Source: an uncultured Planctomycetales bacterium
GTDB lineage: Bacteria > Omnitrophota > Gorgyraeia > Gygaellales > Profunditerraquicolaceae
Assembly (NCBI GenBank): GCA_964510625.1
Contig: CAZEBD010000003.1
Span: 1-38,485 of the forward strand
Direction of reading: 5' to 3'
Length of the DNA stretch: 38,485 bases
Shown: positions 7,024-32,558 of the stretch, one piece after another
Numbering within the stretch: the first letter of the stretch is position 1
Layout of the letters: the number at the start of each line of letters is the position of its first letter
Translations under genes and position numbers: made by a program
Notes under the pieces: model-generated
Told to the model about the DNA's origin: nothing
What the model saw: only the letters and a program-made list of their open reading frames with translations
The model's database searches: none

Positions 7024-7521
7024 ATGCCAGGTTTTGACGGAATGGGTCCGAGAGGACAGGGGTCAATGACCGGCCGCGGTGCAGGTTATTGTATCGTGAA
7101 ATTAGATTCTGATAATATTGAAATGAATAATACAGGAAAGGGGGTATCTGATATGCCTAGAGGAGATGGAACTGGACCTATGGGTTTAGGCCCGATGACT
7201 GGAAGATCCGCGGGTTTTTGCGCCGGGTATAATGCTCCAGGTTATATGAATCCAATTTTCGGAGGTTATGCTGGTATGGGCAGGGGATTCTTTGGCCGCG
7301 GAGGTGGTAGAGGCAGGAGAAATTGGTTTTACGCTACTGGGGTTCCTGGATGGCAAAGAGCCACGACGGGGATACCTGCGTTTGGTGGAATGTATCCTTA
7401 CGCGCCGGAAATAACTCCAAAACAGGAGGCGGATATCTTAAAAAAGCAAGCGGATGTTATAAAAAAACAGCTTGAGGATATTCAAGGCCGTATGGAGGCC
7501 TTAGAAAAAATAAAGGAGTGA
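7024..7521 (+). CDS. DUF5320-type protein with a duplicated N-terminal motif, an RG-rich segment and a C-terminal coiled coil
   Basis: 165 aa from ATG 7024. Two copies of the family signature: MPGFDGMGPRGQGSMTGRGAGYC and MPRGDGTGPMGLGPMTGRSAGFC. Also GRGFFGRGGGRGRRN and the heptad tail EADILKKQADVIKKQLEDIQGRMEALEKIKE. Confidence 0.7.
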   Translation: MPGFDGMGPRGQGSMTGRGAGYCIVKLDSDNIEMNNTGKGVSDMPRGDGTGPMGLGPMTGRSAGFCAGYNAPGYMNPIFGGYAGMGRGFFGRGGGRGRRNWFYATGVPGWQRATTGIPAFGGMYPYAPEITPKQEADILKKQADVIKKQLEDIQGRMEALEKIKE

Positions 7522-7523
7522 TT

Positions 7524-7922
7524 ATGCGTGTAGCTATATCTAGTGACGGAGAGTTTGTATCTGCCCATTTTGGCCGATGCCCGACTTTTACCCTTGTTGA
7601 TATTGAAAACGGTAAGGTAACTAAAAGGATAGAGGTGGTAAATCCCGGGCATCAGCCAGGGGCAATCCCTGAGTTTTTGCATCAAAAAGGCGTCAATTGT
7701 ATCATTGCCGGAGGCATGGGGGCGCGGGCAACATTGTTTTTCCAGGAGTATAGTATTCAGACGATTGTCGGGATAAGCGGAAAGATAGATGAGGTGGTAG
7801 AACAACTTAAGAAGGGCACCTTGGAAGGCGGAGAGAGTCTTTGCAAGCCCGGTGCGGGTAAAGGTTATGGTTTAGATAAGTCGGTATGCGACCATCCGCA
7901 CGAAGATAATTGTGAGCATTAG
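7524..7922 (+). CDS. NifX/NifB-C-terminal (dinitrogenase FeMo-cofactor-binding fold) protein, orange-protein (ORP)-like, with a Cys/His-rich tail
   Basis: 132 aa with AAGGAG 5 nt upstream. MRVAISSDGEFVSAHFGRCPTFTLVDIE...GVNCIIAGGMGARA is typical of the family. The tail CKPGAGKGYGLDKSVCDHPHEDNCEH has 3 Cys and 3 His. Confidence 0.7.
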   Translation: MRVAISSDGEFVSAHFGRCPTFTLVDIENGKVTKRIEVVNPGHQPGAIPEFLHQKGVNCIIAGGMGARATLFFQEYSIQTIVGISGKIDEVVEQLKKGTLEGGESLCKPGAGKGYGLDKSVCDHPHEDNCEH

Positions 7923-7935
7923 AAAGGGAGAATCT

Positions 7936-8313
7936 ATGAAAATTTGCGTTACTTCAGAAGGCGGCAATTTAGATTCTAAGGTAGATCCACGCTTTGGCAG
8001 GTGTCAGTATTTCATTATTGTTGATACCGATACTTTAGAATTTGAGGCTATTGTAAATCCGAACATTGAATCTATGGGCGGTGCGGGTATTCAATCTGCG
8101 CAGCTGGTTGCTTCAAAACAGGTTAAGGCTGTGGTAACAGGGAACGTCGGACCGAATGCTTTCCAAACATTACAGGCTGCGGGGGTAGGGATTTTTACCA
8201 ATGCATCGGGCACCATAAAGGAAGCGATTGAAAAATACAAAAAAGGAGAGTTTAAGGCAGTGTCCGGCCCGAGCGTTGTTTCACATTCCGGCATGCCGAA
8301 TAAAAATAAATAA
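7936..8313 (+). CDS. NifX/ORP-like metal-cluster-binding protein (paralogue)
   Basis: 125 aa from ATG 7936 (GGGAG upstream). MKICVTSEGGNLDSKVDPRFGRCQYFIIVD...VKAVVTGNVGPNAFQTLQAAGV. Confidence 0.7.
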   Translation: MKICVTSEGGNLDSKVDPRFGRCQYFIIVDTDTLEFEAIVNPNIESMGGAGIQSAQLVASKQVKAVVTGNVGPNAFQTLQAAGVGIFTNASGTIKEAIEKYKKGEFKAVSGPSVVSHSGMPNKNK

Positions 8314-23251: not shown

Positions 23252-24346
23252 ATGAATAAAAAATTTACGGATTTAGATATAGGTAACTTAAGAATTAAGA
23301 TACCGATTATTCAGGGTGGGATGGGGGTGCGCGTATCTTCTTCTGCGTTAGCTTCGGCAGTATCCAATGAAGGGGCACTGGGAGTGATTGCTGCGGTCGG
23401 GTTAGGGGAGGAATGCGGTAATGAAAAGCGGGATTACAAGATGCGTTCGCGTGATGAGTTCACTAATATCATCAGAGATACCCGGAGGATGACCAAAAAT
23501 CCTTTTGGCGTCAATATTATGTCGGTGCTGACTAATTATGATGAGTTAGTGGAAGCCGCTCAGGCTGAATCGGTGGATGTGATTATTTCCGGTTCCGGTT
23601 TACCGCTGCGCCTGCCGGCTTTGATTAAGAATGCCCGGACTAAGCTTGTTCCGATTGTTTCCTCCGCCCGGGCAGCGCAGATTATTTGCAGTACCTGGGC
23701 CAGGAGGTATAAGCGCCTGCCGGATGCTTTTATTGTTGAAGGGCCGCTTGCCGGCGGGCATCTGGGTTTTAGCCTGGCTGAGCTTGCCGATGGAAAGCAT
23801 TTTTTTCTGGATAGAATTCTGGCTGAGGTATTAGCGGTGGCGCGCGCTTTTGAGAATGAGCAGAAGCGGATCCCGGTGATTGCCGCCGGAGGGATTTTTG
23901 ACGGTAAAGATATTGCCAGGGTCATGCGCTTAGGCGCCAGCGGAGTGCAGATGGCCACGCGTTTTGTTTGCACCAATGAATGCGATGTTTCCCCGAATTA
24001 TAAAGAGGCATATCTTAATGCGAAAAAAGAGGATATTGTGGTGATTCAGAGCCCGGTTGGGCTGCCGGGACGGGTAATCCGTAATGAATTTGTTAAGAAG
24101 GTAACCGAGGGGGTCAGGGTGCCTTTTGCCTGTGAGTATAAATGTTTGTATACTTGTGATGCTAAAAAAGTCAATTATTGTATTGCCAAAGCGCTGTTAA
24201 ATGCTTACCGGGGCCAGATGGATAAGGGGTTTGCCATGTGCGGCAGCAATGCCTACCGGATAAAAACGATCGTCCCGGTTAAGGATTTAATTGATGAATT
24301 GGTTAGAGAAACAGAGGTTTATTTAAATACTTTAAATGAAGAATAA
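23252..24346 (+). CDS. Nitronate monooxygenase / FabK-like FMN-dependent oxidoreductase family protein
   Basis: 364 aa. PIIQGGMGVRVSS, VEGPLAGGHLG, IPVIAAGGIFDGKDIA and GASGVQMATRF. Confidence 0.75.
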   Translation: MNKKFTDLDIGNLRIKIPIIQGGMGVRVSSSALASAVSNEGALGVIAAVGLGEECGNEKRDYKMRSRDEFTNIIRDTRRMTKNPFGVNIMSVLTNYDELVEAAQAESVDVIISGSGLPLRLPALIKNARTKLVPIVSSARAAQIICSTWARRYKRLPDAFIVEGPLAGGHLGFSLAELADGKHFFLDRILAEVLAVARAFENEQKRIPVIAAGGIFDGKDIARVMRLGASGVQMATRFVCTNECDVSPNYKEAYLNAKKEDIVVIQSPVGLPGRVIRNEFVKKVTEGVRVPFACEYKCLYTCDAKKVNYCIAKALLNAYRGQMDKGFAMCGSNAYRIKTIVPVKDLIDELVRETEVYLNTLNEE

Positions 24347-25358
24347 ACTACTTCTAAAAAAAGCACTGGTAACCGGCGGCGCAGGTTTTATCGGCTCGCA
24401 TTTATGCCAGGAGCTTCTTGCGCGCGGTTTTCAGGTTGCCGTAGTAGATGATCTTTCTACCTCCCAAAAAGCAAATATTTCCGCAATAATTAAGCATAAA
24501 AATTTTAAGTTTTATAAAGGCTCTATTTTGGATAAAAAGCTGATGCGCCGGCTTATCCATGGCTGTGATATTGTTTATCATATGGCAGCCGCGGTCGGGG
24601 TAAAATATATTCTGGCCAATCCTTTGGGTTCGATCATTACTAATATTAAAGGAACTGAGATCGTCCTTGAGCTGGCCGATCAATACCATAAAAAGGTTGT
24701 GCTTGCCTCTACCTCTGAAGTTTACGGTAAGCATATCTGCCAGCCATTTAAAGAAGATGATGACCGGATAATGGGCTCGGTAAGTAAAAGCAGGTGGAGT
24801 TATGCCGAAGCCAAGGCCATGGATGAATTCTTAGCCCTGGCCTATGCCAAAGAGCGGGGCCTGGCGGTAGTCATTGTGCGGTTCTTTAATACTGTCGGCC
24901 CCCGGCAGACCGGCCGCTACGGCATGGTGCTTCCGGGATTTATCCTTAAAGCTCTTCAGAATAAACCGATCACTGTTTATGGGGATGGCTCGCAGATGCG
25001 CTCATTTACTTATGTCAAAGATGCGGTAGAGGCGGTAGTGGCGTTAAGCCTTAAAAAACAGGCCGAAGGCCAGGTCTTTAACATCGGCGGGGCGGCCAAT
25101 ATTTCGATCAAGAACCTGGCGCATAAAGTTAAACAACGGGTAGGCTCAAAGTCTGAGGTAATTTTTGTCCCTTATTCAGAGGCTTACCAGGGGAAAGCTA
25201 AGGATTTTGAGGATATGCCCTGCCGGATCCCGGACACCCGGAAATTGCAGAAAATGATCGGGTTTAAACCGGAATTTTCTATTGAGGAGATAATCGATCT
25301 GACGGTAGATTATTTCCGGAAAGTGAAAAAATGCGGATTAAAAGGCTGTTTGCGTTAA
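24336..25358 (+). CDS. SDR-family NAD-dependent sugar-nucleotide epimerase/dehydratase
   Basis: 340 aa. VTGGAGFIGSHL Rossmann motif, STSEVYG and catalytic YAEAK. Confidence 0.8.
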   Translation: MKNKLLLKKALVTGGAGFIGSHLCQELLARGFQVAVVDDLSTSQKANISAIIKHKNFKFYKGSILDKKLMRRLIHGCDIVYHMAAAVGVKYILANPLGSIITNIKGTEIVLELADQYHKKVVLASTSEVYGKHICQPFKEDDDRIMGSVSKSRWSYAEAKAMDEFLALAYAKERGLAVVIVRFFNTVGPRQTGRYGMVLPGFILKALQNKPITVYGDGSQMRSFTYVKDAVEAVVALSLKKQAEGQVFNIGGAANISIKNLAHKVKQRVGSKSEVIFVPYSEAYQGKAKDFEDMPCRIPDTRKLQKMIGFKPEFSIEEIIDLTVDYFRKVKKCGLKGCLR

Positions 25359-26155
25359 TTCCAGCTGCAATATTATCTGTCCATACTTTGTCTTTTGCCC
25401 AGGAGCGCCCGGAGATCGATGCCAAGCTCAGGGAGGAGCCGGTAAGGTACCTCGAAAACAACCAGTTTTTCTTGAGCTCTTATTATGAATACAGCGCAGT
25501 AAAACAAAACGGAAGAAAAGGCCAGTGGAGGCTTTTTGCCAATACTATCGGGTACGCATTCGCCAATGGCTTTACCCCTTACCTTGAGGTGGATTCCTGG
25601 GACCGTTTCCATAATCAAGACCAGCTTTTTAACCTGGGTGCGTATCTTAAATTTAAAAATTTTTCTTATCTGCATTCTGAGATCGGGTTTGGCAACGATA
25701 TCACCTACCTGCCGAGATTCCGCTTCCTGCAGGAGTATGAACATAAGTTGGCCGGAAACTTATCCTGGCAGGCCGGCTATAAATACCTGAATTATTCTGC
25801 AAATGATGTCCACACCGCCTATCCGGGATTAATTTATTATTTCGGGGACAGCTACTTAGGCGCTTTTTATAACCTTTCTTTTACTGAAAGCCGCGGCGCG
25901 GCCCAGTCGGCGCTATTTAAAGGTAATCTTGCTTTGAACCGGTGGGTTGATTTATGGTTCGGCGCTGCGGTGGGGCAGCGGCTTTATGATATTAATGTTT
26001 TAAAGGCCGCCGATCAGAACGGGTATATTATTTATACCGGATTTGATTTTAAAATTAACACAAGCCTGCGCCTGCGGTTAGGGTTTACTTACGGCAAAGA
26101 AGAGCCCGCTTTTATCTCGCGCAGCATCGATTACGGGCTTACCTTGAAGTTTTAA
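25331..26155 (+). CDS. Outer-membrane beta-barrel protein, YaiO-like
   Basis: 274 aa. Signal peptide MRIKRLFALIPAAILSVHTLSFA, alternating aromatic/hydrophilic beta-strand pattern, and a C-terminal ...YGLTLKF with terminal Phe typical of OMPs. The YaiO family assignment is from memory. Confidence 0.55.
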   Translation: MRIKRLFALIPAAILSVHTLSFAQERPEIDAKLREEPVRYLENNQFFLSSYYEYSAVKQNGRKGQWRLFANTIGYAFANGFTPYLEVDSWDRFHNQDQLFNLGAYLKFKNFSYLHSEIGFGNDITYLPRFRFLQEYEHKLAGNLSWQAGYKYLNYSANDVHTAYPGLIYYFGDSYLGAFYNLSFTESRGAAQSALFKGNLALNRWVDLWFGAAVGQRLYDINVLKAADQNGYIIYTGFDFKINTSLRLRLGFTYGKEEPAFISRSIDYGLTLKF

Positions 26156-26159
26156 AATA

Positions 26160-27119
26160 ATGTATAACTACCATATTGATTTTTTCGGGCAGCTGAATAA
26201 GTTTATGGCCGCTGCCGCTTTTTTAACCAGCGCTTTTATTATTGTTTATGTTGCTTCTAAAGGGGTGTTTATCCGGATGAAGGCCAGGCACCTGGTGCTT
26301 TTAAAAAAACGCCTGGAGAGTGTGGCGGCTTCGAAAAGCTTAAATGTCGGCGGAAGATGCGAATCGTTGATCGGCCGGATCGATCCGCTGGAGGCAGCGG
26401 AGGTAATCCATGGCAATAAGCTGGTGCTTTCCAGCAAGCTTAATGAAGAGCTTAAAGCCTGTTTTGTCACGGAAAATAAAATTGATGAAATTAAGCGGAT
26501 CGCCCTAAAGTCAAGAAATAAGTGGCGCCGGATCCAGGCGATCATCAGCCTGGGGGCTTTGGATGACCCGGCAGTTTTGGGGGTGTTAGAAAGCGGCCTG
26601 GCGGATAAAGATGAAAATGTGGCTTATTTTTCTATGCTGGCTTTAGGCCAGATCAAAAACCTGCCATCGGCAAAGATCCTTTTGAATTTTTTAGATAAAC
26701 ATATCTATAGCGGATACAAGATCGTCTCTTTGTTGGAAGATTTTCCTCCTTTGATTGTGGAGGAGGTGGTAAAAACCACGCAAAGCCATGACCCGTTTGT
26801 GCGTTTTTGGTGCCTCAAGCTTTTAGCTAAATTTAAACCGGTCCAGTATTTAAGCCAGATCCTGAACTTGACTAAAGATCCTTCCGGTGATGTGCGGGCT
26901 GCCGGATGCGAATGCTTAGGAGAGATGGGGGCCTTTCAGGCAAAAGATGCGCTTATCTTTTGCCTGAAGGATGAAGTTTGGTTTGTGCGCATGCGCGCAA
27001 TAAGGGCACTGGCTAAAATTTTAAAGAGCGAATGTATTCCTTTAATTACCCCGATGCTTAAGGATAGCGACCTGCTGGTTAGGGAGAGCGCGAAAAACGC
27101 GATTGCGCTGAATCATTAA
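26160..27119 (+). CDS. Membrane-anchored HEAT-repeat protein
   Basis: 319 aa. One N-terminal TM helix (AAAFLTSAFIIVYVA), then repeated units such as RRIQAIISLGALDDP, DENVAYFSMLALGQI, DPFVRFWCLKLLAKF, SGDVRAAGCECLGEMG, VWFVRMRAIRALAKI and LLVRESAKNAI. Confidence 0.65.
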   Translation: MYNYHIDFFGQLNKFMAAAAFLTSAFIIVYVASKGVFIRMKARHLVLLKKRLESVAASKSLNVGGRCESLIGRIDPLEAAEVIHGNKLVLSSKLNEELKACFVTENKIDEIKRIALKSRNKWRRIQAIISLGALDDPAVLGVLESGLADKDENVAYFSMLALGQIKNLPSAKILLNFLDKHIYSGYKIVSLLEDFPPLIVEEVVKTTQSHDPFVRFWCLKLLAKFKPVQYLSQILNLTKDPSGDVRAAGCECLGEMGAFQAKDALIFCLKDEVWFVRMRAIRALAKILKSECIPLITPMLKDSDLLVRESAKNAIALNH

Positions 27120-27120
27120 T

Positions 27121-28521
27121 ATGCCTCCGGATAAAGTTTCCTATATTATTTTCATTATTTTCTTTGCGTATTTTATCATTTTGAATCTGTATTATATCAG
27201 CCTGACGATTATCGCCCTATTTGAAAATAGGAAGAGAGCAAAAGAGGATGCATCCGAGGATTACCGCAGGCTGGCGGTTTCAGCTTTTACCCTGCCGGTA
27301 AGTTTTATCATCCCGGCGCATAATGAAGAGGATTGGATCGCGGATTCGCTCAAATCAGTGCTTAACCAGGATTACCCGGAGTTTGAGGTAATTGTGGTAG
27401 ATGATTGTTCTGTTGATAAGACATTTAAGATTTTAGAGGAGTTTTTAAAACTTAAGCCTGTCAGCAAAGATTATGTAGAGCGTTTTACCTGTTCAGAGGG
27501 GGACAGTGTTTTTTCCTCTTTGGCTTATCCCCAGGTTACGGTTTTAACTAAAATCAACGGCTGCAAAAAGGCCGGAGCGTTAAATTCTGCTTTGAATCTG
27601 GCCAGGTATAAGTATGTCTGCACTATTGATGCGGATACGGTACTGGAGCCGGACGCTTTAATCAAGGTTATGGCGCAGGTGGAAAAAGACCCGGACAAAA
27701 TTATCGGGGTCGGGGGTTATTTTGGGCTGGTCAATGGTTTTCATATTAAGGATGGCCGGATCATTAAAAAAAGTTTTTCGCCTAACCCGATCATCGCCTA
27801 TCAGAATGTGGAGTATATCCGCTCACTGGCGGTCCACCGGGTGGCCTGGAGTAAATACAATGCGATGCCGATTGTCGCCGGGGGTTTTAGCATCTGGCGC
27901 CGGGATATTCTTCTGGAGTTAGGGGGATACGCTTCGGATTACAGTTCGGAAGACCTGGAATTTACCTTAAGGGCGCATGATTATATCATTGAGAATAAAA
28001 AAGAGGGTTTACGGATTCTGATGCTGCCGTACTTAGTCGGCTGGACAGAAGGCCCTTCAAATTTACTGTCTTTTATTGTCCAGCGTGACCGCTGGCAGCG
28101 GGTAATCAATGAGGCGGTTTTAAAATACCGGCATATGCTCCTGCGCCCCAGCCATAAGGCGCTGGCATTTCTGACCCTGCCGTATTTATTCTTTTATGAA
28201 TTTTTGGGGGTGTTTGTCGAACTGGCTGCCTTGTTTCTTGCGGTGTGGGGAGCCTTGCAGGGATTACTGGACATTAAGGTATTTCTGACTTTTATTGTTT
28301 TTATGATCCTGTGCAATGCGCTGATCTCGCTGGCCGCATTATTCATTTTTGTCCGCGATCAGGCGGTGTTGAGGACGCGCGACGTAATTTATTTTATCAT
28401 CCTTATTTTCCTGGAATTTTTCTGGTACCGCTGGTTAATGACTATCGCCAAATTATTAGGCACAATCCATTATTTTAAAGGCGTGCGTACTTTTGATAAA
28501 TACCAGCGCCGGCAAAGATGA
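27121..28521 (+). CDS. Processive family-2 glycosyltransferase (polysaccharide synthase; PgaC/cellulose/chitin-synthase-like)
   Basis: 466 aa. N-terminal TM, VSFIIPAHNEE, VIVVDDCSVD, TIDADT and SEDLEF. QRDRWQRV corresponds to the Q-x-x-R-W motif of processive synthases. Several C-terminal TM helices. Confidence 0.8.
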   Translation: MPPDKVSYIIFIIFFAYFIILNLYYISLTIIALFENRKRAKEDASEDYRRLAVSAFTLPVSFIIPAHNEEDWIADSLKSVLNQDYPEFEVIVVDDCSVDKTFKILEEFLKLKPVSKDYVERFTCSEGDSVFSSLAYPQVTVLTKINGCKKAGALNSALNLARYKYVCTIDADTVLEPDALIKVMAQVEKDPDKIIGVGGYFGLVNGFHIKDGRIIKKSFSPNPIIAYQNVEYIRSLAVHRVAWSKYNAMPIVAGGFSIWRRDILLELGGYASDYSSEDLEFTLRAHDYIIENKKEGLRILMLPYLVGWTEGPSNLLSFIVQRDRWQRVINEAVLKYRHMLLRPSHKALAFLTLPYLFFYEFLGVFVELAALFLAVWGALQGLLDIKVFLTFIVFMILCNALISLAALFIFVRDQAVLRTRDVIYFIILIFLEFFWYRWLMTIAKLLGTIHYFKGVRTFDKYQRRQR

Positions 28522-29411
28522 AAACTGTCTGGCAGGAAAGAGTTTTATATTTTATTTTTACGGCGATCCTTGCGGTATTACTCATCGATAGCCTGGGGGA
28601 GTTCGGCGGCCTGGCCTGGGCCCGGCATATTGTTTTTGATTACGCCAAGATATTCCTTCCGGTGATTCTTTTGATGATGCATTGTGTATATTCGCTTTTT
28701 TTAAAAAGGGGCCTGGCCTTAATTTTTTTTATTTGTTCCTGCGGTTTAATTGCCGAAATTATCGGCTTAAAAACCGGCCTTTTATTCGGCAGCCATTACC
28801 GCTATAATCCTGACAGCTTATTGATGTTTTCCCGGCTTCCTTTGTTTGGACAGGGTATGTTTTTTTGCGGCGTGCCGCTTTTAGTGGTTTTTTACTGGGC
28901 AGTTTTTATCTATGCCGGGTATAGTATTTCGAATTCGTTTCTATTCTGGCAAGGGCAGGGCAAGCCATCGCATCAGGCAAAAAATACTGCTTTATTGGTT
29001 AAGCTTATTTTGCTGGATGCTTTTATCGTCTTAGCCCTTGACCTGGTGATGGATCCGGTGCTGGTCAATGCCGGCAATTGGGCCTGGCATAAACCGGGAG
29101 CTTATTTCGGTGTCCCGGCGGGTAATTTTTTAGGATGGTTTGCTGTGGCTATTGTTTTAAGCGGCGCATTCAGGATCTTTGAGTATAATTTTCCGGATCA
29201 GATAAAAAAACTAACCCCGCTGCCGATTTTATTTCCCGTGCTTTCTTTGTCGGTGGTTTTTATTCTGGCTGTAGGTATCGCTCTGTACAAAAGTTTATAC
29301 CTGCTTATTCCGGTAGCGGTTTTTACCATGCTGCCGGTTATCCTGGCGAATTTCTATCTTTTTTTTACCGGCAGAAATGGTTTGGCATATTACTCAGCCG
29401 GTAAAAGATAA
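28518..29411 (+). CDS. Polytopic membrane protein, carotenoid-biosynthesis-protein (CruF/DUF422)-like family
   Basis: 297 aa, about 8 TM helices. GLKTGLLFGSHYRY and WAWHKPGAYFGVPAGNFLGWF resemble the family signature as I remember it. 4-nt overlap with the GT2 gene. Confidence 0.45.
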   Translation: MKTVWQERVLYFIFTAILAVLLIDSLGEFGGLAWARHIVFDYAKIFLPVILLMMHCVYSLFLKRGLALIFFICSCGLIAEIIGLKTGLLFGSHYRYNPDSLLMFSRLPLFGQGMFFCGVPLLVVFYWAVFIYAGYSISNSFLFWQGQGKPSHQAKNTALLVKLILLDAFIVLALDLVMDPVLVNAGNWAWHKPGAYFGVPAGNFLGWFAVAIVLSGAFRIFEYNFPDQIKKLTPLPILFPVLSLSVVFILAVGIALYKSLYLLIPVAVFTMLPVILANFYLFFTGRNGLAYYSAGKR

Positions 29412-29584: not shown

Positions 29585-30901
29585 ATGACAACGGAAAACA
29601 GGTCTAAAGAGGAGCTTTTATCAGAGGTCGGGGCGTTGGAAGAGCGGCTTAGGCAGCTGAGGCTGGGCCAAAAGTGGCAAACCGATATTATGTCTGTGGT
29701 TGCTGACTGGGTCTGGGAGGTAGATGTAGGCGGATTATTTACTTACAGCTCGCAGAAAAGTACCGATATTTTAGGATACTCCCGTGAAGAAATAATCGGC
29801 AAGACGCCGTTTGATTTTATGCCGCCAGAGGAAGCTAAGAAAGTGGCAGAAGTATTTTCGAAGATTGTTGCCGAGAGAGTGCCGATCAAAGACCTGGAAA
29901 ATTGGAATATCCGGAAGGATGGCAAAAGGATCTGTTTATTGACTAATGGCGTAGCGATCTGGGATGAAGCCGGGAACTTTAAAGGCTACCGCGGGGTGGA
30001 TAAAGATATTACCGAACGCAAAGAAACCCTGGAGAAACTGAGCAGTTATGAAACCCGTTTAAGTTACCTGACTAAGTATGCTAATGATTTTATTATTCTT
30101 CTGGATAAGGATTTTCGTTTTCTGGAAACCAATCTCAGGGTAAGCGATTTTTACGGGTATACTCAGGAGGAGCTGATCGGTATGCAGGCGGCGGATATCC
30201 GGGCTCCGGAGGTGCGCGCGGCTTTCCAGCAGCAGGTAAAACCGGCACAGCTGACCGGCCAGGCAATTTATGAAACTATTCATCAGCGTAAAGACGGGAC
30301 CAAGTTCCCGGTTGAGATCAGCTTGCGGACCATAGATGCCGAAGGCAAGCGCCTGTATCTGGCAGTGATCCGGGACATTACTGAGCGCAAGAACGCTGAA
30401 GCGGCCCTGCAAACTACTGAAAACCAGATGAAGTTATTGGTTGAGAATATTAAGGTGGGGATTACTTATATGGATAAAGATTATAAAATTATTTTCACCA
30501 ATAAAGCGCAGGGTGAGCTTTTTAAGCGGCCACCGGAGGAGTTTGTGGGTAAGTTTTGTTTTGCGGAGTTTGAAAAACGCGATGCGATTTGTCCGCATTG
30601 CCCGGGTAAAAAAGCGATGGTCTCCGGCTGTCATGAAAGTTCGGAGGCCACCGGCGTGCGCAATAGCGGTGAAAAATTCCAGGTGCGTATCAATGCCTTT
30701 CCTTATTTTCAAGTGGATGGTAAAATCGCCGGGTTTATTGAGACGGTTGAGGATATTACTGAACGTAAAAAACTGGAGGAAGCGACCAAAAAACACGTGC
30801 AGGAACTGGAGGTCTTTTACAAAGCGGCGATGGGCAGGGAGGAGAGGATCCTGGATTTAAAAAAAGAAATTGACAGCCTGAAAAAAGAACTAAAAAAGTG
30901 A
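29585..30901 (+). CDS. Cytoplasmic triple-PAS sensor protein with no recognisable output domain; ends in a short conserved coiled-coil helix
   Basis: 438 aa. N-terminal coiled coil, then three PAS units each closed by (D)ITERK (GVDKDITERK, VIRDITERK, VEDITERK). The third contains 4 Cys (C..CPHCPG..C). No HisKA/HATPase, GGDEF, EAL, HD or HTH follows, only HVQELEVFYKAAMGREERILDLKKEIDSLKKELKK. Confidence 0.8.
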   Translation: MTTENRSKEELLSEVGALEERLRQLRLGQKWQTDIMSVVADWVWEVDVGGLFTYSSQKSTDILGYSREEIIGKTPFDFMPPEEAKKVAEVFSKIVAERVPIKDLENWNIRKDGKRICLLTNGVAIWDEAGNFKGYRGVDKDITERKETLEKLSSYETRLSYLTKYANDFIILLDKDFRFLETNLRVSDFYGYTQEELIGMQAADIRAPEVRAAFQQQVKPAQLTGQAIYETIHQRKDGTKFPVEISLRTIDAEGKRLYLAVIRDITERKNAEAALQTTENQMKLLVENIKVGITYMDKDYKIIFTNKAQGELFKRPPEEFVGKFCFAEFEKRDAICPHCPGKKAMVSGCHESSEATGVRNSGEKFQVRINAFPYFQVDGKIAGFIETVEDITERKKLEEATKKHVQELEVFYKAAMGREERILDLKKEIDSLKKELKK

Positions 30902-31408
30902 AAGCAGAGATTCCGGTATCTACCGGTGAAGTTTGGGCGGCTCAGCAAGGGATAATCCTGAGGACAGATGCAATCGGTTCCTGTATCGGGTTAGCTGCTT
31001 ATGATGCCAGGAGTAAAATTGGGGCGCTGGCGCATATTATGCTTCCCGGGGTTTCCCCGAATAGCGGCCTGGCATATAATACCAAATATGCTGTTGATGC
31101 CTTAGGGGGATATGTTGTTTAAGATGAATCGTCTGGGCGCCGATGCCCGGCGCATTGAGGCCTGCCTGGTGGGGGCAGGTAATGTCCTGCAGGATAAGCA
31201 TGATAAAGTCTGCTCTAATTTGATTGCCTCAGTTTCGGATATTCTTGATGGACATAGCATAAAGGTGGTTGCCCGGGCATTAGGGGGGATGTTGCGCAGG
31301 TGTATGTTTATTAATATCGGAAGCGCCGAAGTCCATTATTCCGAAGGCGATGGCCCGGATAGATTATTGTATAGATGGGAGTATAACTCAGGAGAAGCCA
31401 ATGAATAA
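30898..31408 (+). pseudogene. cheD: CheD-like chemoreceptor glutamine deamidase; reading frame broken by a 1-nt shift at a G5 run
   Basis: Two abutting ORFs (30898-31122 and 31112-31408) together align by eye along the whole length of T. maritima/B. subtilis-type CheD. Matches include AIGSCIGLAAYD..KIGALAHIMLP (catalytic Cys and His contexts), KYAVDALG|DMLFKMNRLGA, EACLVGAGNV and ALGGMLRRCMF. Removing one G from GGGGG (31105-31109) restores one ~169-aa frame. Confidence 0.75.
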
Positions 31409-32558
31409 AACACATCAGGAGTCTCTTCAGGATTCGTTTGCTTTTTTTTCGCAAGCCGCCGCGGTAATTGTATCTTTTACAGGGTGCATAGTGTTATTGG
31501 GGTGGCTGTTTGATATCACGGCGATGAAAAGCGTATTCCCGGGGCTGGTGACGATGAAGCCAAATACGGCTTTATGCATTATGCTGGCCGGCCTGGCGTT
31601 ATGGTCGGCCCAGGAAAAACGGATAAATAAAATTAACCTGTTGGTTACGCGCAGTTGTTGTATTTTTGTTATGGGTTTATCCTTAATTACGATCATTGAG
31701 TATGTCTATGGTGTTAATTTAGGAATTGACCAATTGATGTTTAAAGATGACCCCGGAGCTTTATTCACCACTTATCCCGGCCGGATGGCTTTGCATACGG
31801 CGGCCGGTTTTGCTCTGGTGGCTATCGCGCTGTTTTTGTCAAATTCTAAAAATAAGCGGGGTTATATTTTTATGCAGATTCTTTCTTTGTTGGTAGTAAT
31901 CCTATCGGTCCTATCTTTATTGTGGTATGTTTATGAAGTAAAAATTTTCAATTTGGGTGGCAAAAGAACCACGGTAATGGCGCTGCATACTGCGCTGGCC
32001 TTTTTACTGATTGGCCTGGGAATATTTTTTTTGCGGCCGAAACAATGGTTAGCCGGAACAATTACCAGTGATAACCTGGGCAGTAAAGTTGCCCGGCGGC
32101 TGATCCCGGTGGCGGTGTTTATTCCTCCGATTTTGGGTTGGATAAAGATCTGGGGGGAACAACATGGGTATTTGCCCAATGAATTCGGCGTATCATTTGT
32201 GGCATTGATGAACATGATCACAATAATTAGCTGTGTTATCTGGCTGGTCACTTACTTAAACCGGATTGACCTGGAACGCAGAAGGACAGAGGATATTCTA
32301 CGGGCCAGCCAGCAGCAGATGCAGGCGGCTAACCAACAGCTACGGGCCAGCCAGCAGCAGCTCAAGGCTTCTAATCTGCAGTTGATCGCCAATGAACAGA
32401 AGCTACAAGCCGAAATTGCCGAGCGTAAAAGGATAGAGGAGTTAGACGACCGGCATATTCATGAGTTGGAAGTATTTTATAAGTCAAGCGTGGGCAGAGA
32501 AGAGCGCATTATTGAACTTAAAAAAGAGATCGAAGACCTGAAAAACAAGCTTAAATGA
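31401..32558 (+). CDS. 8-TM integral membrane sensor-like protein with a Gln-rich coiled-coil tail and the same C-terminal helix as the PAS protein
   Basis: 385 aa from ATG 31401 (AGGAGAAG upstream; 8-nt overlap with cheD). The membrane part has a repeated motif before TM helices: MKPNTALCIMLAGLAL, RMALHTAAGFALVAIAL and VMALHTALAFLLIGLGI. The tail reads LRASQQQMQAANQQLRASQQQLKASNLQLIANEQKLQAEIAERK...HIHELEVFYKSSVGREERIIELKKEIEDLKNKLK. No enzymatic output domain. Confidence 0.6.
   Translation: MNKTHQESLQDSFAFFSQAAAVIVSFTGCIVLLGWLFDITAMKSVFPGLVTMKPNTALCIMLAGLALWSAQEKRINKINLLVTRSCCIFVMGLSLITIIEYVYGVNLGIDQLMFKDDPGALFTTYPGRMALHTAAGFALVAIALFLSNSKNKRGYIFMQILSLLVVILSVLSLLWYVYEVKIFNLGGKRTTVMALHTALAFLLIGLGIFFLRPKQWLAGTITSDNLGSKVARRLIPVAVFIPPILGWIKIWGEQHGYLPNEFGVSFVALMNMITIISCVIWLVTYLNRIDLERRRTEDILRASQQQMQAANQQLRASQQQLKASNLQLIANEQKLQAEIAERKRIEELDDRHIHELEVFYKSSVGREERIIELKKEIEDLKNKLK
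32298..32381 (+). repeat. Tandem 42-nt (14-codon) coding repeat
   Basis: CTACGGGCCAGCCAGCAGCAG occurs identically at 32298-32318 and 32340-32360. The units encode LRASQQQMQAANQQ and LRASQQQLKASNLQ, and a degenerate third unit follows (LIANEQKLQAEIAE). Confidence 0.9.

Follow-up and report, generated by a model that had tools for sequence, protein, structure and literature searches.

A widespread Gln heptad array in non-MCP sensors and its CheD-like neighbour, a putative deamidation system

Introduction

That CheR, CheB and CheD modify signalling helices covalently is textbook sensory adaptation, and to our knowledge this chemistry has been treated as a property of chemoreceptors. Chao et al. 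in 2006 are said to have given A/S-x-x-Q/E-Q/E-x-x-A/S as the pattern of the sites on which CheD acts. CheD deamidates Gln residues of the receptors (PMC7289035, PMC3513319). In the literature that we searched, we found nothing that describes an action of CheD on non-MCP proteins, NQQL/EQQL arrays, or a pairing between cheD-like genes and such arrays.

We analysed a 38,485-nucleotide stretch of DNA (the window) in which a preliminary description had noticed a Gln-rich repeat in a membrane protein encoded next to a cheD gene, and had proposed that this non-MCP protein carries, in the repeat, sites for the cheD product.

Results

The target protein (P0001, 385 aa, 31401..32558 on the + strand, read from the ORF and its translation) has an 8-TM input domain, a Gln heptad array and an ELEVFYK tail. 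Its start is the ATG at 31401; the start chosen by the ORF lister, 31350, lies upstream of it. The membrane domain covers residues 1 to about 290 (31401..32270, +), judging from eight hydrophobic segments and the architectures of homologues. These eight segments bear out the earlier label of 8-TM, and a positively charged stretch past the last of them supports the placing of the tail in the cytoplasm. That the protein is not an MCP also holds, as Pfam shows no MCP signalling domain and no PAS or kinase domain in it. The sole hit is a sub-threshold match to TgpA_N, and apart from this neither Pfam nor NCBIfam places the 8-TM protein in a family. When the AlphaFold2 model (mean pLDDT 85.9) was compared with the PDB by Foldseek, no fold match was significant (best E = 0.43). 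The array does not lie where receptor sites lie, in the methylation helices of the MCP signalling domain (PF00015): P0001 has no MCPsignal hit, and AlphaFold2 predicts a single continuous helix that leaves TM8 and runs through residues 260-384, with a pLDDT of 87-97 across the array.

The array occupies residues 300-336 (32298..32408, +). It reads LR followed by the heptads ASQQQMQ, AANQQLR, ASQQQLK, ASNLQLI and ANEQKLQ, with the pattern A-x-[N/E/Q]-Q-Q-L-x. The Gln-rich tandem repeat at 32298-32381 is as it had been reported, in coordinates and in sequences: the translation is LRASQQQMQAANQQ / LRASQQQLKASNLQ, then LIANEQKLQAEIAE. We also found, as previously stated, that both 42-nt units open with an identical 21 nt (ctacgggccagccagcagcag, at 32298-32318 and 32340-32360). 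Where we differ is the period. Tandem Repeats Finder gave a period of 21 nt (3.1 copies, 60% matches) and copies of the motif fall at residues 302, 309 and 316. The basic period is therefore 7, and we rejected the proposed 14-residue unit in that role. The wider family does show a 14-residue super-period, with N and E taking turns at the third heptad position.

Two 8-mers had been put forward as sites, ASQQQMQA (32304-32327) and ASQQQLKA (32346-32369). Both fit the strict pattern [AS]xx[QE][QE]xx[AS], and a third, overlapping match, AANQQLRA (32325-32348), had been overlooked, which makes three matches in register. The window array thereby meets the local consensus of MCP sites on a heptad helix, and fits the family consensus given below with some departures. 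In two of the three strict heptads position 3 is Q instead of N/E, in one position 6 is M instead of L, and the two heptads that follow (ASNLQLI and ANEQKLQ) are degenerate. The 8-mer pattern by itself is loose: when we shuffled the 50-residue tail while keeping its composition (n=200,000), at least one match turned up in 19% of the shuffles, at least two in 1.5%, at least three in 0.06%, and three in heptad register in 0.003%.

It had been suggested that conservation in orthologues would be a check, and this came out in favour of the array. The orthologue P0002, which is 57% identical to P0001, keeps the array and has expanded it to six in-register matches via a 21-nt tandem repeat; the window's array is short and partly degenerate by comparison, with three strict heptads and one QQ pair changed to LQ. 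P0001 and P0002 are the only ones with array runs among the best 120 homologues of the 8-TM domain, which is a widespread input module and is fused elsewhere to PAS, HisKA/HATPase, MCPsignal, GGDEF, SpoIIE or STAS (Pfam, homologue list). Within 4 kb of the three nearest array-less homologues there was no CheD. Given these two results, we rejected the idea that the array merely tracks the 8-TM domain.

The C-terminal ELEVFYK module (ERKRIEELDDRHIHELEVFYKSSVGREERIIELKKEIEDLKNKLK, about 45 aa, 32421..32555, +) is shared with the PAS protein encoded upstream, and the two tails are 60% identical. It is found at many C-termini in the representative library and recurs in Omnitrophota loci. Compared with Pfam and with PDB sequences, the tail gave only coiled-coil noise. 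Its function is unknown; it is probably an output or partner-binding helix. With the 98-aa tail as query, an exhaustive search of representatives found 559 of them; this search was needed since a word-indexed protein search gave 3 hits only. One protein-database source labels the low-complexity repeat 'chromosome segregation ATPase'.

The array gene lies in a tightly packed operon. The first gene (29585..30901, +) encodes a protein with three PAS domains (Pfam PAS_9, PAS_4 and PAS), which carries the ELEVFYK module without a Gln array. Its stop overlaps the GTG start of the cheD-like gene (GTGA at 30898), and the cheD-like stop in turn overlaps the start of P0001 (ATGAATAA at 31401), since the one gene ends at 31408 and the other begins at 31401. 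The cheD-like gene is thus immediately upstream of the array gene, as had been claimed, but it is not intact: a frameshift splits it into two ORFs (30898-31122 and 31112-31408). The N-terminal fragment of 74 codons (30898..31122, +) contains the catalytic Cys (GSC) and His (AHIMLP) and matches the NCBIfam CheD models over profile positions 5-66. The C-terminal part, in the +1 frame (31110..31408, +, within which the ORF is listed as 31112..31408), scores 31.7 bits with Pfam CheD over profile positions 28-105. By alignment it bears the signature of a branch that we describe below (G-A-G-N-V-L and LGG..RR).

Read directly from the sequence, the break is in a run of five G (31105..31109, +). One G is extra: with four, there is a continuous ORF of 169 aa (...DALGDMLFKM...), and the orthologue in locus L001 has DALADMLFKM here. 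Once repaired, the protein shares 59% identity with the L001 CheD and belongs to Pfam CheD (PF03975) with 45.1 bits against a cut-off of 25 (orthologues, 33-63 bits); as encoded, only the C-terminal fragment passes. In L001 the CheD, encoded at 7516-8007, is intact at 163 aa, and the end of its gene overlaps the start of the array gene in the same layout as in the window. Because of the frameshift, the cheD-like product may not be made here. The window system has either been hit by a sequencing error or is currently disabled.

We scanned window ORFs of 110 aa or more up to 35.5 kb and found no CheA, CheW, CheB, CheR, CheC or MCP genes, and tblastn for CheB and CheR across the whole window gave no hit.

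The cheD-like gene belongs to a branch of its own. In alignment with T. maritima-type CheDs the branch is marked by GGANVL, by LGG..RR and by a 4-residue deletion, and it is nearly monophyletic (161/163 sequences of its clade). A profile of the branch matches T. maritima CheD (PDB 2F9Z) with E = 7.9e-24, and all 169 of its 169 sequences have the catalytic Cys and His. It does not reach the cut-off of any NCBIfam CheD equivalog (NF0100xx, NF041119), with best scores of 65-89 bits versus 223-369. CheB and CheR were absent from the 79 metagenome loci of the branch, while 45 and 11, respectively, of the ordinary CheD loci had them. The canonical mark of a CheD, a neighbourhood of chemotaxis genes, is therefore missing.

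By our definition, a pair consists of a GGANVL-branch gene and, immediately downstream of it on the same strand, a gene for a protein with at least three consecutive heptads. The window has both, with the heptads counted by the 8-mer pattern. When we scanned genomes starting from CheD, five loci (L001, L002 and L004-L006) had at least three consecutive heptads, each time in the next gene; L002 and L004-L006 are four of the five closest relatives of the L001 CheD in that scan. None of 75 ordinary CheD loci had a Gln array. Of the metagenome loci of the branch, 40 had 2 kb or more of DNA downstream, and in 32 of these 40 an array ORF started within 400 nt downstream of the CheD gene. Wherever an array ORF was found in metagenome loci, it was downstream on the same strand in 45 of 51 cases, and four of the array-'negative' loci carry shorter arrays.

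The reverse search gave the same adjacency. We picked genome blocks of 8 kb solely by a DNA pattern for NQQLxAxEQQLxAxNQQL, and 84 of the 120 blocks contained the cheD-like gene of this branch. Where the upstream side was visible, the gene was present in 69 of 88, directly upstream on the same strand in 58 of these 69, and 19 of the 88 array loci had no cheD-like gene nearby. Branch and array are thus neighbours whichever of the two the search starts from, their genes often overlap, and the MAGs concerned carry the labels of at least 12 phyla. On contig L116 a CheD-like domain and arrays form one fused, in-frame protein. As to a possible third conserved component in the neighbourhood, only response regulators recur (18 and 12 loci). 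CheB was found in 0 and CheR in 1 of 120 Gln-array loci.

Across the family the consensus is A-[A/S]-[N/E]-Q-Q-L-[R/K/Q], repeated over 3 to 15 consecutive heptads, and every heptad of this consensus reproduces the receptor modification-site pattern. In 411 heptads the two QQ positions are Q in 99% and 100%, position 6 is L in 98% and the first position A in 94%, with N and E alternating. Of the four positions that are most conserved, three are exactly the ones that the CheD/CheR/CheB site consensus specifies. Our search pattern allowed E at both QQ positions, and the interchange of Q and E that is seen at MCP sites did not appear in these heptads. Position 7 is K or R in 53%, with Arg commoner than Lys.

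The arrays sit in the helical linkers of non-MCP sensors; in P0001 the linker is a straight continuation of the last TM helix. The partner proteins are 8-TM only or have PAS, GAF, HAMP or Cache (dCache-HAMP) domains, with kinases of the HisKA, HisKA_2 and HisKA_3 types. By Pfam, there was no MCPsignal among 73 array proteins in the best 25 of 32 matched families. The Gln array is the sole feature that we saw in all partner proteins.

There is a second kind of array, made of Glu (S-x-N-E-E-L-Q; NEEL heptads such as ELETSNEELQSTNEELQS...). By Pfam these are inside CheB-CheR-PAS_10 fusion proteins in 9/9 cases, and their loci contain CheR in 100, CheB in 88 and CheD in 0 of 120. Glu arrays go with CheB-CheR and Gln arrays with CheD, so the chemistry of the array matches the chemistry of the enzyme.

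Discussion

We think it probable, though far from settled, that the window array belongs to a widespread family of Gln heptad arrays in non-MCP sensors that are deamidated by the adjacent CheD-like enzyme. The pairing, the invariant Cys and His, the fusion and the Glu/CheB-CheR split all support the original proposal of CheD sites in a non-MCP protein. Deamidation itself is inferred, without any biochemistry, and the case for it is gene neighbourhood and motif logic only.

If this is right, the CheD-like enzyme would dock on the array and turn Gln into Glu. By analogy with MCPs, the main target may be the second Gln of each pair. If Leu is taken as heptad position a and the small residue as d, the target Gln would be at g, and e would hold the Asn or Glu that alternate. 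With deamidation, negative charge would come onto the flanks of a weakly packed coiled coil, and this charge would alter helix pairing and with it the state in which the sensor signals. Since the pair comes without CheR or CheB, each molecule would go through this step in one direction only, and the step could serve as maturation, as a switch or as a timer; it would not be reversible adaptation.

The near-absence of Glu in the arrays bears on which of these it might be. It suggests that Glu is not equivalent to Gln at synthesis, so that the Gln state itself must matter, and going by the sequences it argues against a simple constitutive maturation. It fits regulated deamidation, and it fits pure binding too. 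The alternative that best survives is that the CheD-like protein is a binding regulator, which docks on the array as a pseudo-substrate, as CheD binds receptors and CheC, and shifts the output of the sensor without any chemistry. In B. subtilis chemotaxis, CheD binding outweighs its deamidase activity (PMC3513319), and Gln at 99-100% without Glu substitutes is what would be expected of an unmodified Gln ligand. However, a protein that only binds does not account for the invariance of the catalytic Cys and His, or for the way in which the split between Gln/CheD and Glu/CheB-CheR tracks enzyme chemistry, and up to 15 sites per array seem too many for one docking site. We consider this alternative unlikely, but it deserves to be taken seriously.

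The pair may instead be decaying in this particular genome, with the cheD-like gene a true pseudogene and the array a relic linker. The frameshift in the G5 run would fit, as would an array that is shorter and less regular than that of the orthologue, with its LQ in place of one QQ. We find this quite improbable, since a one-base homopolymer difference is typical of an assembly or sequencing error, both fragments retain all conserved residues with no further lesions, and the operon is still tightly overlapping.

There is also the question of whether the repeat is mere structure, a coiled-coil linker that fits a loose 8-mer only through the accident of its A/Q/L composition, while the CheD-like enzyme acts elsewhere, on another part of the sensor or on another protein. 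Any heptad with Ala, and QQ three residues further on, will match at every turn, single matches are common in composition-matched shuffles, and in Pfam the tail gives only generic coiled-coil noise. What a passive linker leaves unexplained is the link of the gene neighbourhood in two directions and across so many phylum labels, the array as the one constant of the partners, the lack of CheD beside array-less 8-TM homologues, and the existence of an in-frame fusion, and we give it very little credence. We hold it extremely improbable that the same thioester intermediate serves some other Gln chemistry, be it a transglutaminase-like cross-link to the Lys at position 7 or an esterase step on sites that an unlinked CheR has methylated: in Cys-His amidases an amine can take the place of water in resolving the acyl-enzyme, about half of the heptads have K or R at position 7, and the NCBIfam name for T. 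maritima CheD is deamidase/methylesterase, but no observation supports such a reaction, Arg outnumbers Lys at that position, and CheR is near arrays in a single locus.

Taking deamidation of the arrays by the neighbouring enzyme as our working interpretation, a larger claim can be made. A dedicated CheD-type branch would covalently reprogram two-component sensor kinases and other non-MCP sensors, with up to about 30 Gln to Glu changes per signalling coiled coil. For this we see as much reason for doubt as for belief. A long array might work as a timer, or as a charge switch of a graded or an irreversible kind. Many of the MAGs with the branch are from Bacteroidales, Omnitrophota and Cloacimonadota, which as far as we know are believed to be largely without chemotaxis. 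If the pair is real, CheR/CheB/CheD-type chemistry reaches into mainstream two-component signalling across many phyla that have been little studied. CheD genes without chemotaxis genes around them would acquire a function, and a conspicuous low-complexity repeat would have an explanation. Many bacteria may tune ordinary sensors with the chemistry of chemotaxis receptors, and a natural, tunable charge switch would be on offer for coiled-coil engineering.

Comparison with known systems

The S-helix and coiled-coil linkers of sensor kinases resemble the array in that a heptad helix runs between an input module (the last TM helix in our case) and the modules downstream. The S-helix is reportedly defined, by Anantharaman et al. 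in 2006, by other conserved residues than those of the array, and we know of no covalent modification of it or enzyme dedicated to it.

Methylation and demethylation of MCPs by CheR and CheB share the site consensus with the arrays, and in both a signalling helix is tuned, or would be tuned, by side-chain charge. Unlike in that system, the Gln arrays have no methyltransferase or esterase linked to them (the one CheR locus aside). Deamidation alone is irreversible, so the result would be a one-way switch and not adaptation.

Another close system is CheD on the adaptation sites of MCPs (McpA/B/C of B. subtilis; the CheD of T. maritima). The enzymes are homologous and have the same Cys and His, and in both cases the target motif fits A/S-x-x-Q/E-Q/E-x-x-A/S on a heptad-periodic helix. 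In contrast, the window target is not an MCP, and no CheA, CheW, CheC, CheR, CheB or MCP genes accompany it in the window or in related loci, again with the exception of that CheR. The enzyme branch has its own signature and scores far below every NCBIfam CheD equivalog cut-off. MCPs have few Q/E sites, in an antiparallel four-helix bundle, whereas the Gln arrays are long, uninterrupted, all-Gln runs in linker helices, in partners whose predicted structure is a linker helix or coiled coil, and their core positions differ from those of Tar-type sites. In real MCP sites Q and E interchange; in the arrays they essentially never do.

The CheB-CheR-PAS_10 fusions are close as well. They have the same heptad register, [A/S/T]-x-N-[E/Q]-[E/Q]-L-x, and as in the Gln-array pair a non-MCP PAS protein carries the array, with a physical coupling to a modifying enzyme of the Che type. 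They differ in having Glu pairs, CheB and CheR in the same polypeptide, and no CheD nearby. We found no report of a methylation test of these Glu arrays in the literature searched, and the parallel supports our reading of the Gln arrays without establishing a precedent for it. If both kinds of array are what they appear to be, receptor-style covalent modification would be a general, modular layer of bacterial signal transduction and not a speciality of chemoreceptors.

The array protein and its neighbourhood

The 8-TM membrane protein that carries the array is encoded by an ORF at 31350-32558, and its true start is most likely the ATG at 31401 (385 aa), with an AGGAG 7 nt upstream and the same start as in the database protein P0001. 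A hydropathy scan gave eight hydrophobic segments and then the positively charged NRIDLERRR. The tail consists of LR, ASQQQMQ, AANQQLR, ASQQQLK, ASNLQLI, ANEQKLQ and AEIAERK, followed by RIEELDDRHIHELEVFYKSSVGREERIIELKKEIEDLKNKLK. In the AlphaFold2 model (mean pLDDT 85.9), TM8 runs on as a single helix (residues 260-384) through the array and tail.

We confirmed the Gln-rich repeat of the preliminary description, with corrections. Its coordinates (32298-32381) and peptides are correct, as is the 42-nt duplication with the first 21 bases identical. It had counted two sites with a 14-residue period; there are three matches to [AS]xx[QE][QE]xx[AS], reportedly the consensus of Chao et al. 2006, and they lie 7 residues apart, at 302, 309 and 316, which makes 7 the period. 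Composition-matched shuffles of the 50-residue tail gave at least three matches in 0.06% of cases and three in register in 0.003%. This test is weak on its own because the motif pattern arises from a repeat, and it is the comparative data that decide between chance and non-chance.

The orthologue P0002, from a 28.5-kb ENA contig, is 57% identical. Its array, ASEQQLQAANQQLQAANQQLQAANQQLKASQQQLKASNQQLTA, has six matches in register, generated by a 21-nt tandem repeat whose copies match one another at 91-93%, so the array is kept while its copy number varies. On the orthologous contig (L001) an intact 163-aa CheD (7516-8007) lies directly upstream and runs into the array gene, which starts at 8000.

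In the window, the cheD gene placed immediately upstream by the preliminary description is present (30898-31408), but it is split into ORFs at 30898-31122 and 31112-31408 by an extra G in the run of five G at 31105-31109. Deleting one G yields a 169-aa protein with 59% identity to the intact orthologue, and the conserved residues are all intact on either side of the frameshift, which could be an assembly error or the mark of a very recent pseudogene. In the genome collection the window's closest relatives, at 51-55% identity, belong to Omnitrophota MAGs, from which we infer that this phylum is its probable source. The window instance is a short array beside an enzyme gene with a one-base frameshift of uncertain reality.

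Genes for a PAS protein, the CheD-like protein, the 8-TM protein, a MacB/FtsX permease and an ABC ATPase overlap by 4-8 nt at successive junctions (30898, 31401, 32555 and 33690; GTGA, ATGAATAA, ATGA). They look translationally coupled, which suggests one operon. Pfam found no chemotaxis family in window ORFs of at least 110 aa up to 35.5 kb, and tblastn found no match to CheB or CheR anywhere in the window. The ABC transporter linkage is not kept in L001, where the remaining neighbourhood is unlike that of the window. One block (epimerase, YaiO-like protein, HEAT-repeat protein, family-2 glycosyltransferase and carotenoid-synthesis-like membrane protein) is common to window 24336-29411 and L001 9545-14636. 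It lies on opposite sides of the cheD-array pair, so the pair moves as a unit relative to its surroundings.

Two further parts of these proteins recur. The PAS protein (30755-30898) and the 8-TM protein (32421-32555) share a C-terminal module of ~45 aa, ERK..EE....H.HELEVFYK..(V/I)GREERI.ELKKEI..LK, which has no match in Pfam or PDB. It forms the C-terminal end in 54 of the best 150 library representatives and is seen again in four Omnitrophota loci (L162, L201, L218, L224); it may serve as an output or partner-binding helix in sensors that otherwise lack an output. The N-terminal domain of the 8-TM protein (31401-32270) is a widespread membrane input module with an invariant GID and a nearly invariant PGRM, found elsewhere fused to PAS, histidine kinase, MCP signalling, GGDEF, SpoIIE phosphatase or STAS domains. 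Neither Pfam nor NCBIfam assigns it a family (Pfam yields only a sub-threshold TgpA_N match), and the confident model of the protein has no PDB fold match.

Linkage of arrays and cheD-like genes

We searched from both ends. A genome scan with the L001 CheD, one genome per species, gave 80 loci, or 81 with L001. A neighbouring ORF with at least three consecutive heptad matches was present in five of the 81, as the next gene every time: L001, a Pirellulales MAG (L002), two Lentimicrobiaceae MAGs (L004, L005) and a Bacteroidales MAG (L006). The latter four loci account for four of the five CheDs nearest to that of L001 in the scan. None of the 75 ordinary CheD loci had an array ORF. A metagenome scan with a profile of the branch added 79 loci, 51 with an adjoining array ORF, which was downstream on the same strand in 45 and usually within about 50 nt or overlapping. 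Where at least 2 kb of downstream DNA was available, 32 of 40 loci were positive, and shorter arrays are present in L098, L100, L118 and L151, half of the eight negatives. The longest arrays have 15 consecutive heptads.

In the reverse direction, a DNA pattern encoding NQQLxAxEQQLxAxNQQL had at least 120 matches in the genome collection. Those listed carry MAG labels of Omnitrophota, Planctomycetota, Bacteroidota, Cloacimonadota, Zixibacteria, Fibrobacterota, Bdellovibrionota, Nitrospirota, Elusimicrobiota, Acidobacteriota, Thermodesulfobacteriota, Chlorobium and others. Among the matches listed, 84 of 120 8-kb blocks contain a cheD-like gene; with the upstream side of the array ORF visible the count is 69 of 88, directly upstream on the same strand in 58. 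Some genomes have extra array proteins distant from the enzyme gene (for example L187 and L210, on a single Bacteroidales chromosome).

On one metagenome contig (L116 2524-7404) a CheD-like domain and a PAS protein carrying two Gln arrays form one in-frame fusion. Among 242 loci this is the sole case, and it could still be an assembly artefact.

The enzymes form a distinct branch. Members are above the Pfam CheD threshold and score far under every NCBIfam CheD equivalog cut-off; the branch profile matches T. maritima CheD (2F9Z) at E = 7.9e-24. A signature (C-L-x-G-G-A-N-V-L, a 4-residue deletion and LGG..RR) occurs in 161 of the 163 sequences of the clade in a neighbour-joining tree, and Cys and His are invariant in all 169 branch sequences. 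An array adjoins 126 of these 169, as against 1 of 71 other CheDs.

Array anatomy and partner proteins

We tallied 411 heptads from 74 arrays, found with a pattern that permitted [AS] at position 1 and [QE] at 4 and 5. Position 1 is A (94%), position 2 A, S or T, position 3 N (58%) or E (36%), positions 4 and 5 Q (99% and 100%), position 6 L (98%) and position 7 R, K or Q. N and E alternate at position 3: of the 337 pairs of adjacent heptads, 259 read N-E or E-N and none reads E-E. Nothing in the search pattern dictated the near-total Q, the Leu or the N/E alternation. In the register that we infer, Leu takes position a, the small residue of position 2 takes d, N/E takes e, and the Gln pair occupies f and g.

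We examined two sets of partners: ten proteins encoded beside the enzyme gene, and 73 array-bearing representatives drawn from an unbiased search of the library. Most are sensor histidine kinases (HisKA, HisKA_2, HisKA_3, HWE) with PAS, GAF, HAMP or dCache domains, some are PAS-only proteins, and no MCPsignal match is among the Pfam families listed for either set, which for the 73 representatives were the top 25 of 32. The arrays sit between domains. The window protein lacks both PAS and kinase domains, which leaves the array as the only feature that we saw in every partner. Only response regulators recur nearby besides sensors. Arrays occur in 2 of the best 120 8-TM homologues, and no CheD lies within 4 kb of the three closest homologues that lack an array and are on long contigs, so the enzyme tracks the array and not the membrane domain.

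Several Bacteroidota partners have a Cys-rich domain, KCY..x9-12..C.FC(T/K)N...W.F.N...G.WYRC.DKAI.W.DGR, beside or flanked by Gln arrays (L006 5692-8337 and 8784-10453; L103 1210-1782; L151 671-2893; L005 584-2595).

Glutamate arrays

We also tested whether Glu-rich heptads occur in CheB-CheR fusion proteins. A pattern for NEELQxxNEELQxxNEEL gave at least 120 loci, and in all nine proteins scanned the Glu array (ELETSNEELQSTNEELQS...) has the CheB_methylest-CheR module on one side and PAS_10 on the other. Among the matches listed, the 120 Glu-array loci have CheD in none, CheB in 88 and CheR in 100, whereas the 120 Gln-array loci have CheD (of the cheD-like branch) in 84, CheB in none and CheR in one. 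Glu-pair arrays accompany Glu-acting enzymes and Gln-pair arrays accompany a Gln-acting enzyme. In our view only the two-way neighbourhood evidence speaks more strongly than this split for the arrays being enzyme substrates.

The Glu arrays (L285-L404, for example L290 2426-5860, minus strand) match the same site consensus as the Gln arrays and lie in large non-MCP fusion proteins from many phyla. Our literature search found no paper testing their methylation in CheB-CheR-PAS_10 proteins. Near one cheD-like gene, L155 7881-10508 has an array-like stretch that mixes Glu and Gln heptads (EQELSSLNEELISNEEQLQVNEEELREYNQQL) and may be intermediate between the classes.

Proposed mechanism

That the arrays are substrate sites of the adjacent cheD product, as first proposed, is supported by strong comparative evidence and is biochemically untested. 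The motif, helix, gene pairing, conserved active site and absence of Che partners are what the analysis shows; deamidation of the array Gln by the CheD-like enzyme is inferred. The target would be the second Gln of each pair, by analogy with MCPs. Each event would add a negative charge near a weakly packed core of Leu and small residues and beside the alternating Glu at e, and helix pairing and sensor output would change in consequence. As no CheR or CheB is present, each molecule would be changed irreversibly.

That Gln is so strictly conserved implies that the unmodified state matters. This conservation is also compatible with a CheD-like protein that binds the array without modifying it, a role with a precedent in B. 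subtilis (PMC3513319), and the evidence leaves room for this. The same conservation favours regulated or progressive conversion over constitutive maturation.

In the literature searched, no paper describes CheD acting on targets other than MCPs, and none describes NQQL/EQQL arrays; absence from that library is not proof of novelty. We class the enzyme family and site logic as already known, and the target class, site architecture and genomic setting as new. That CheD deamidates glutamines of MCPs is established (PMC7289035, PMC3513319).
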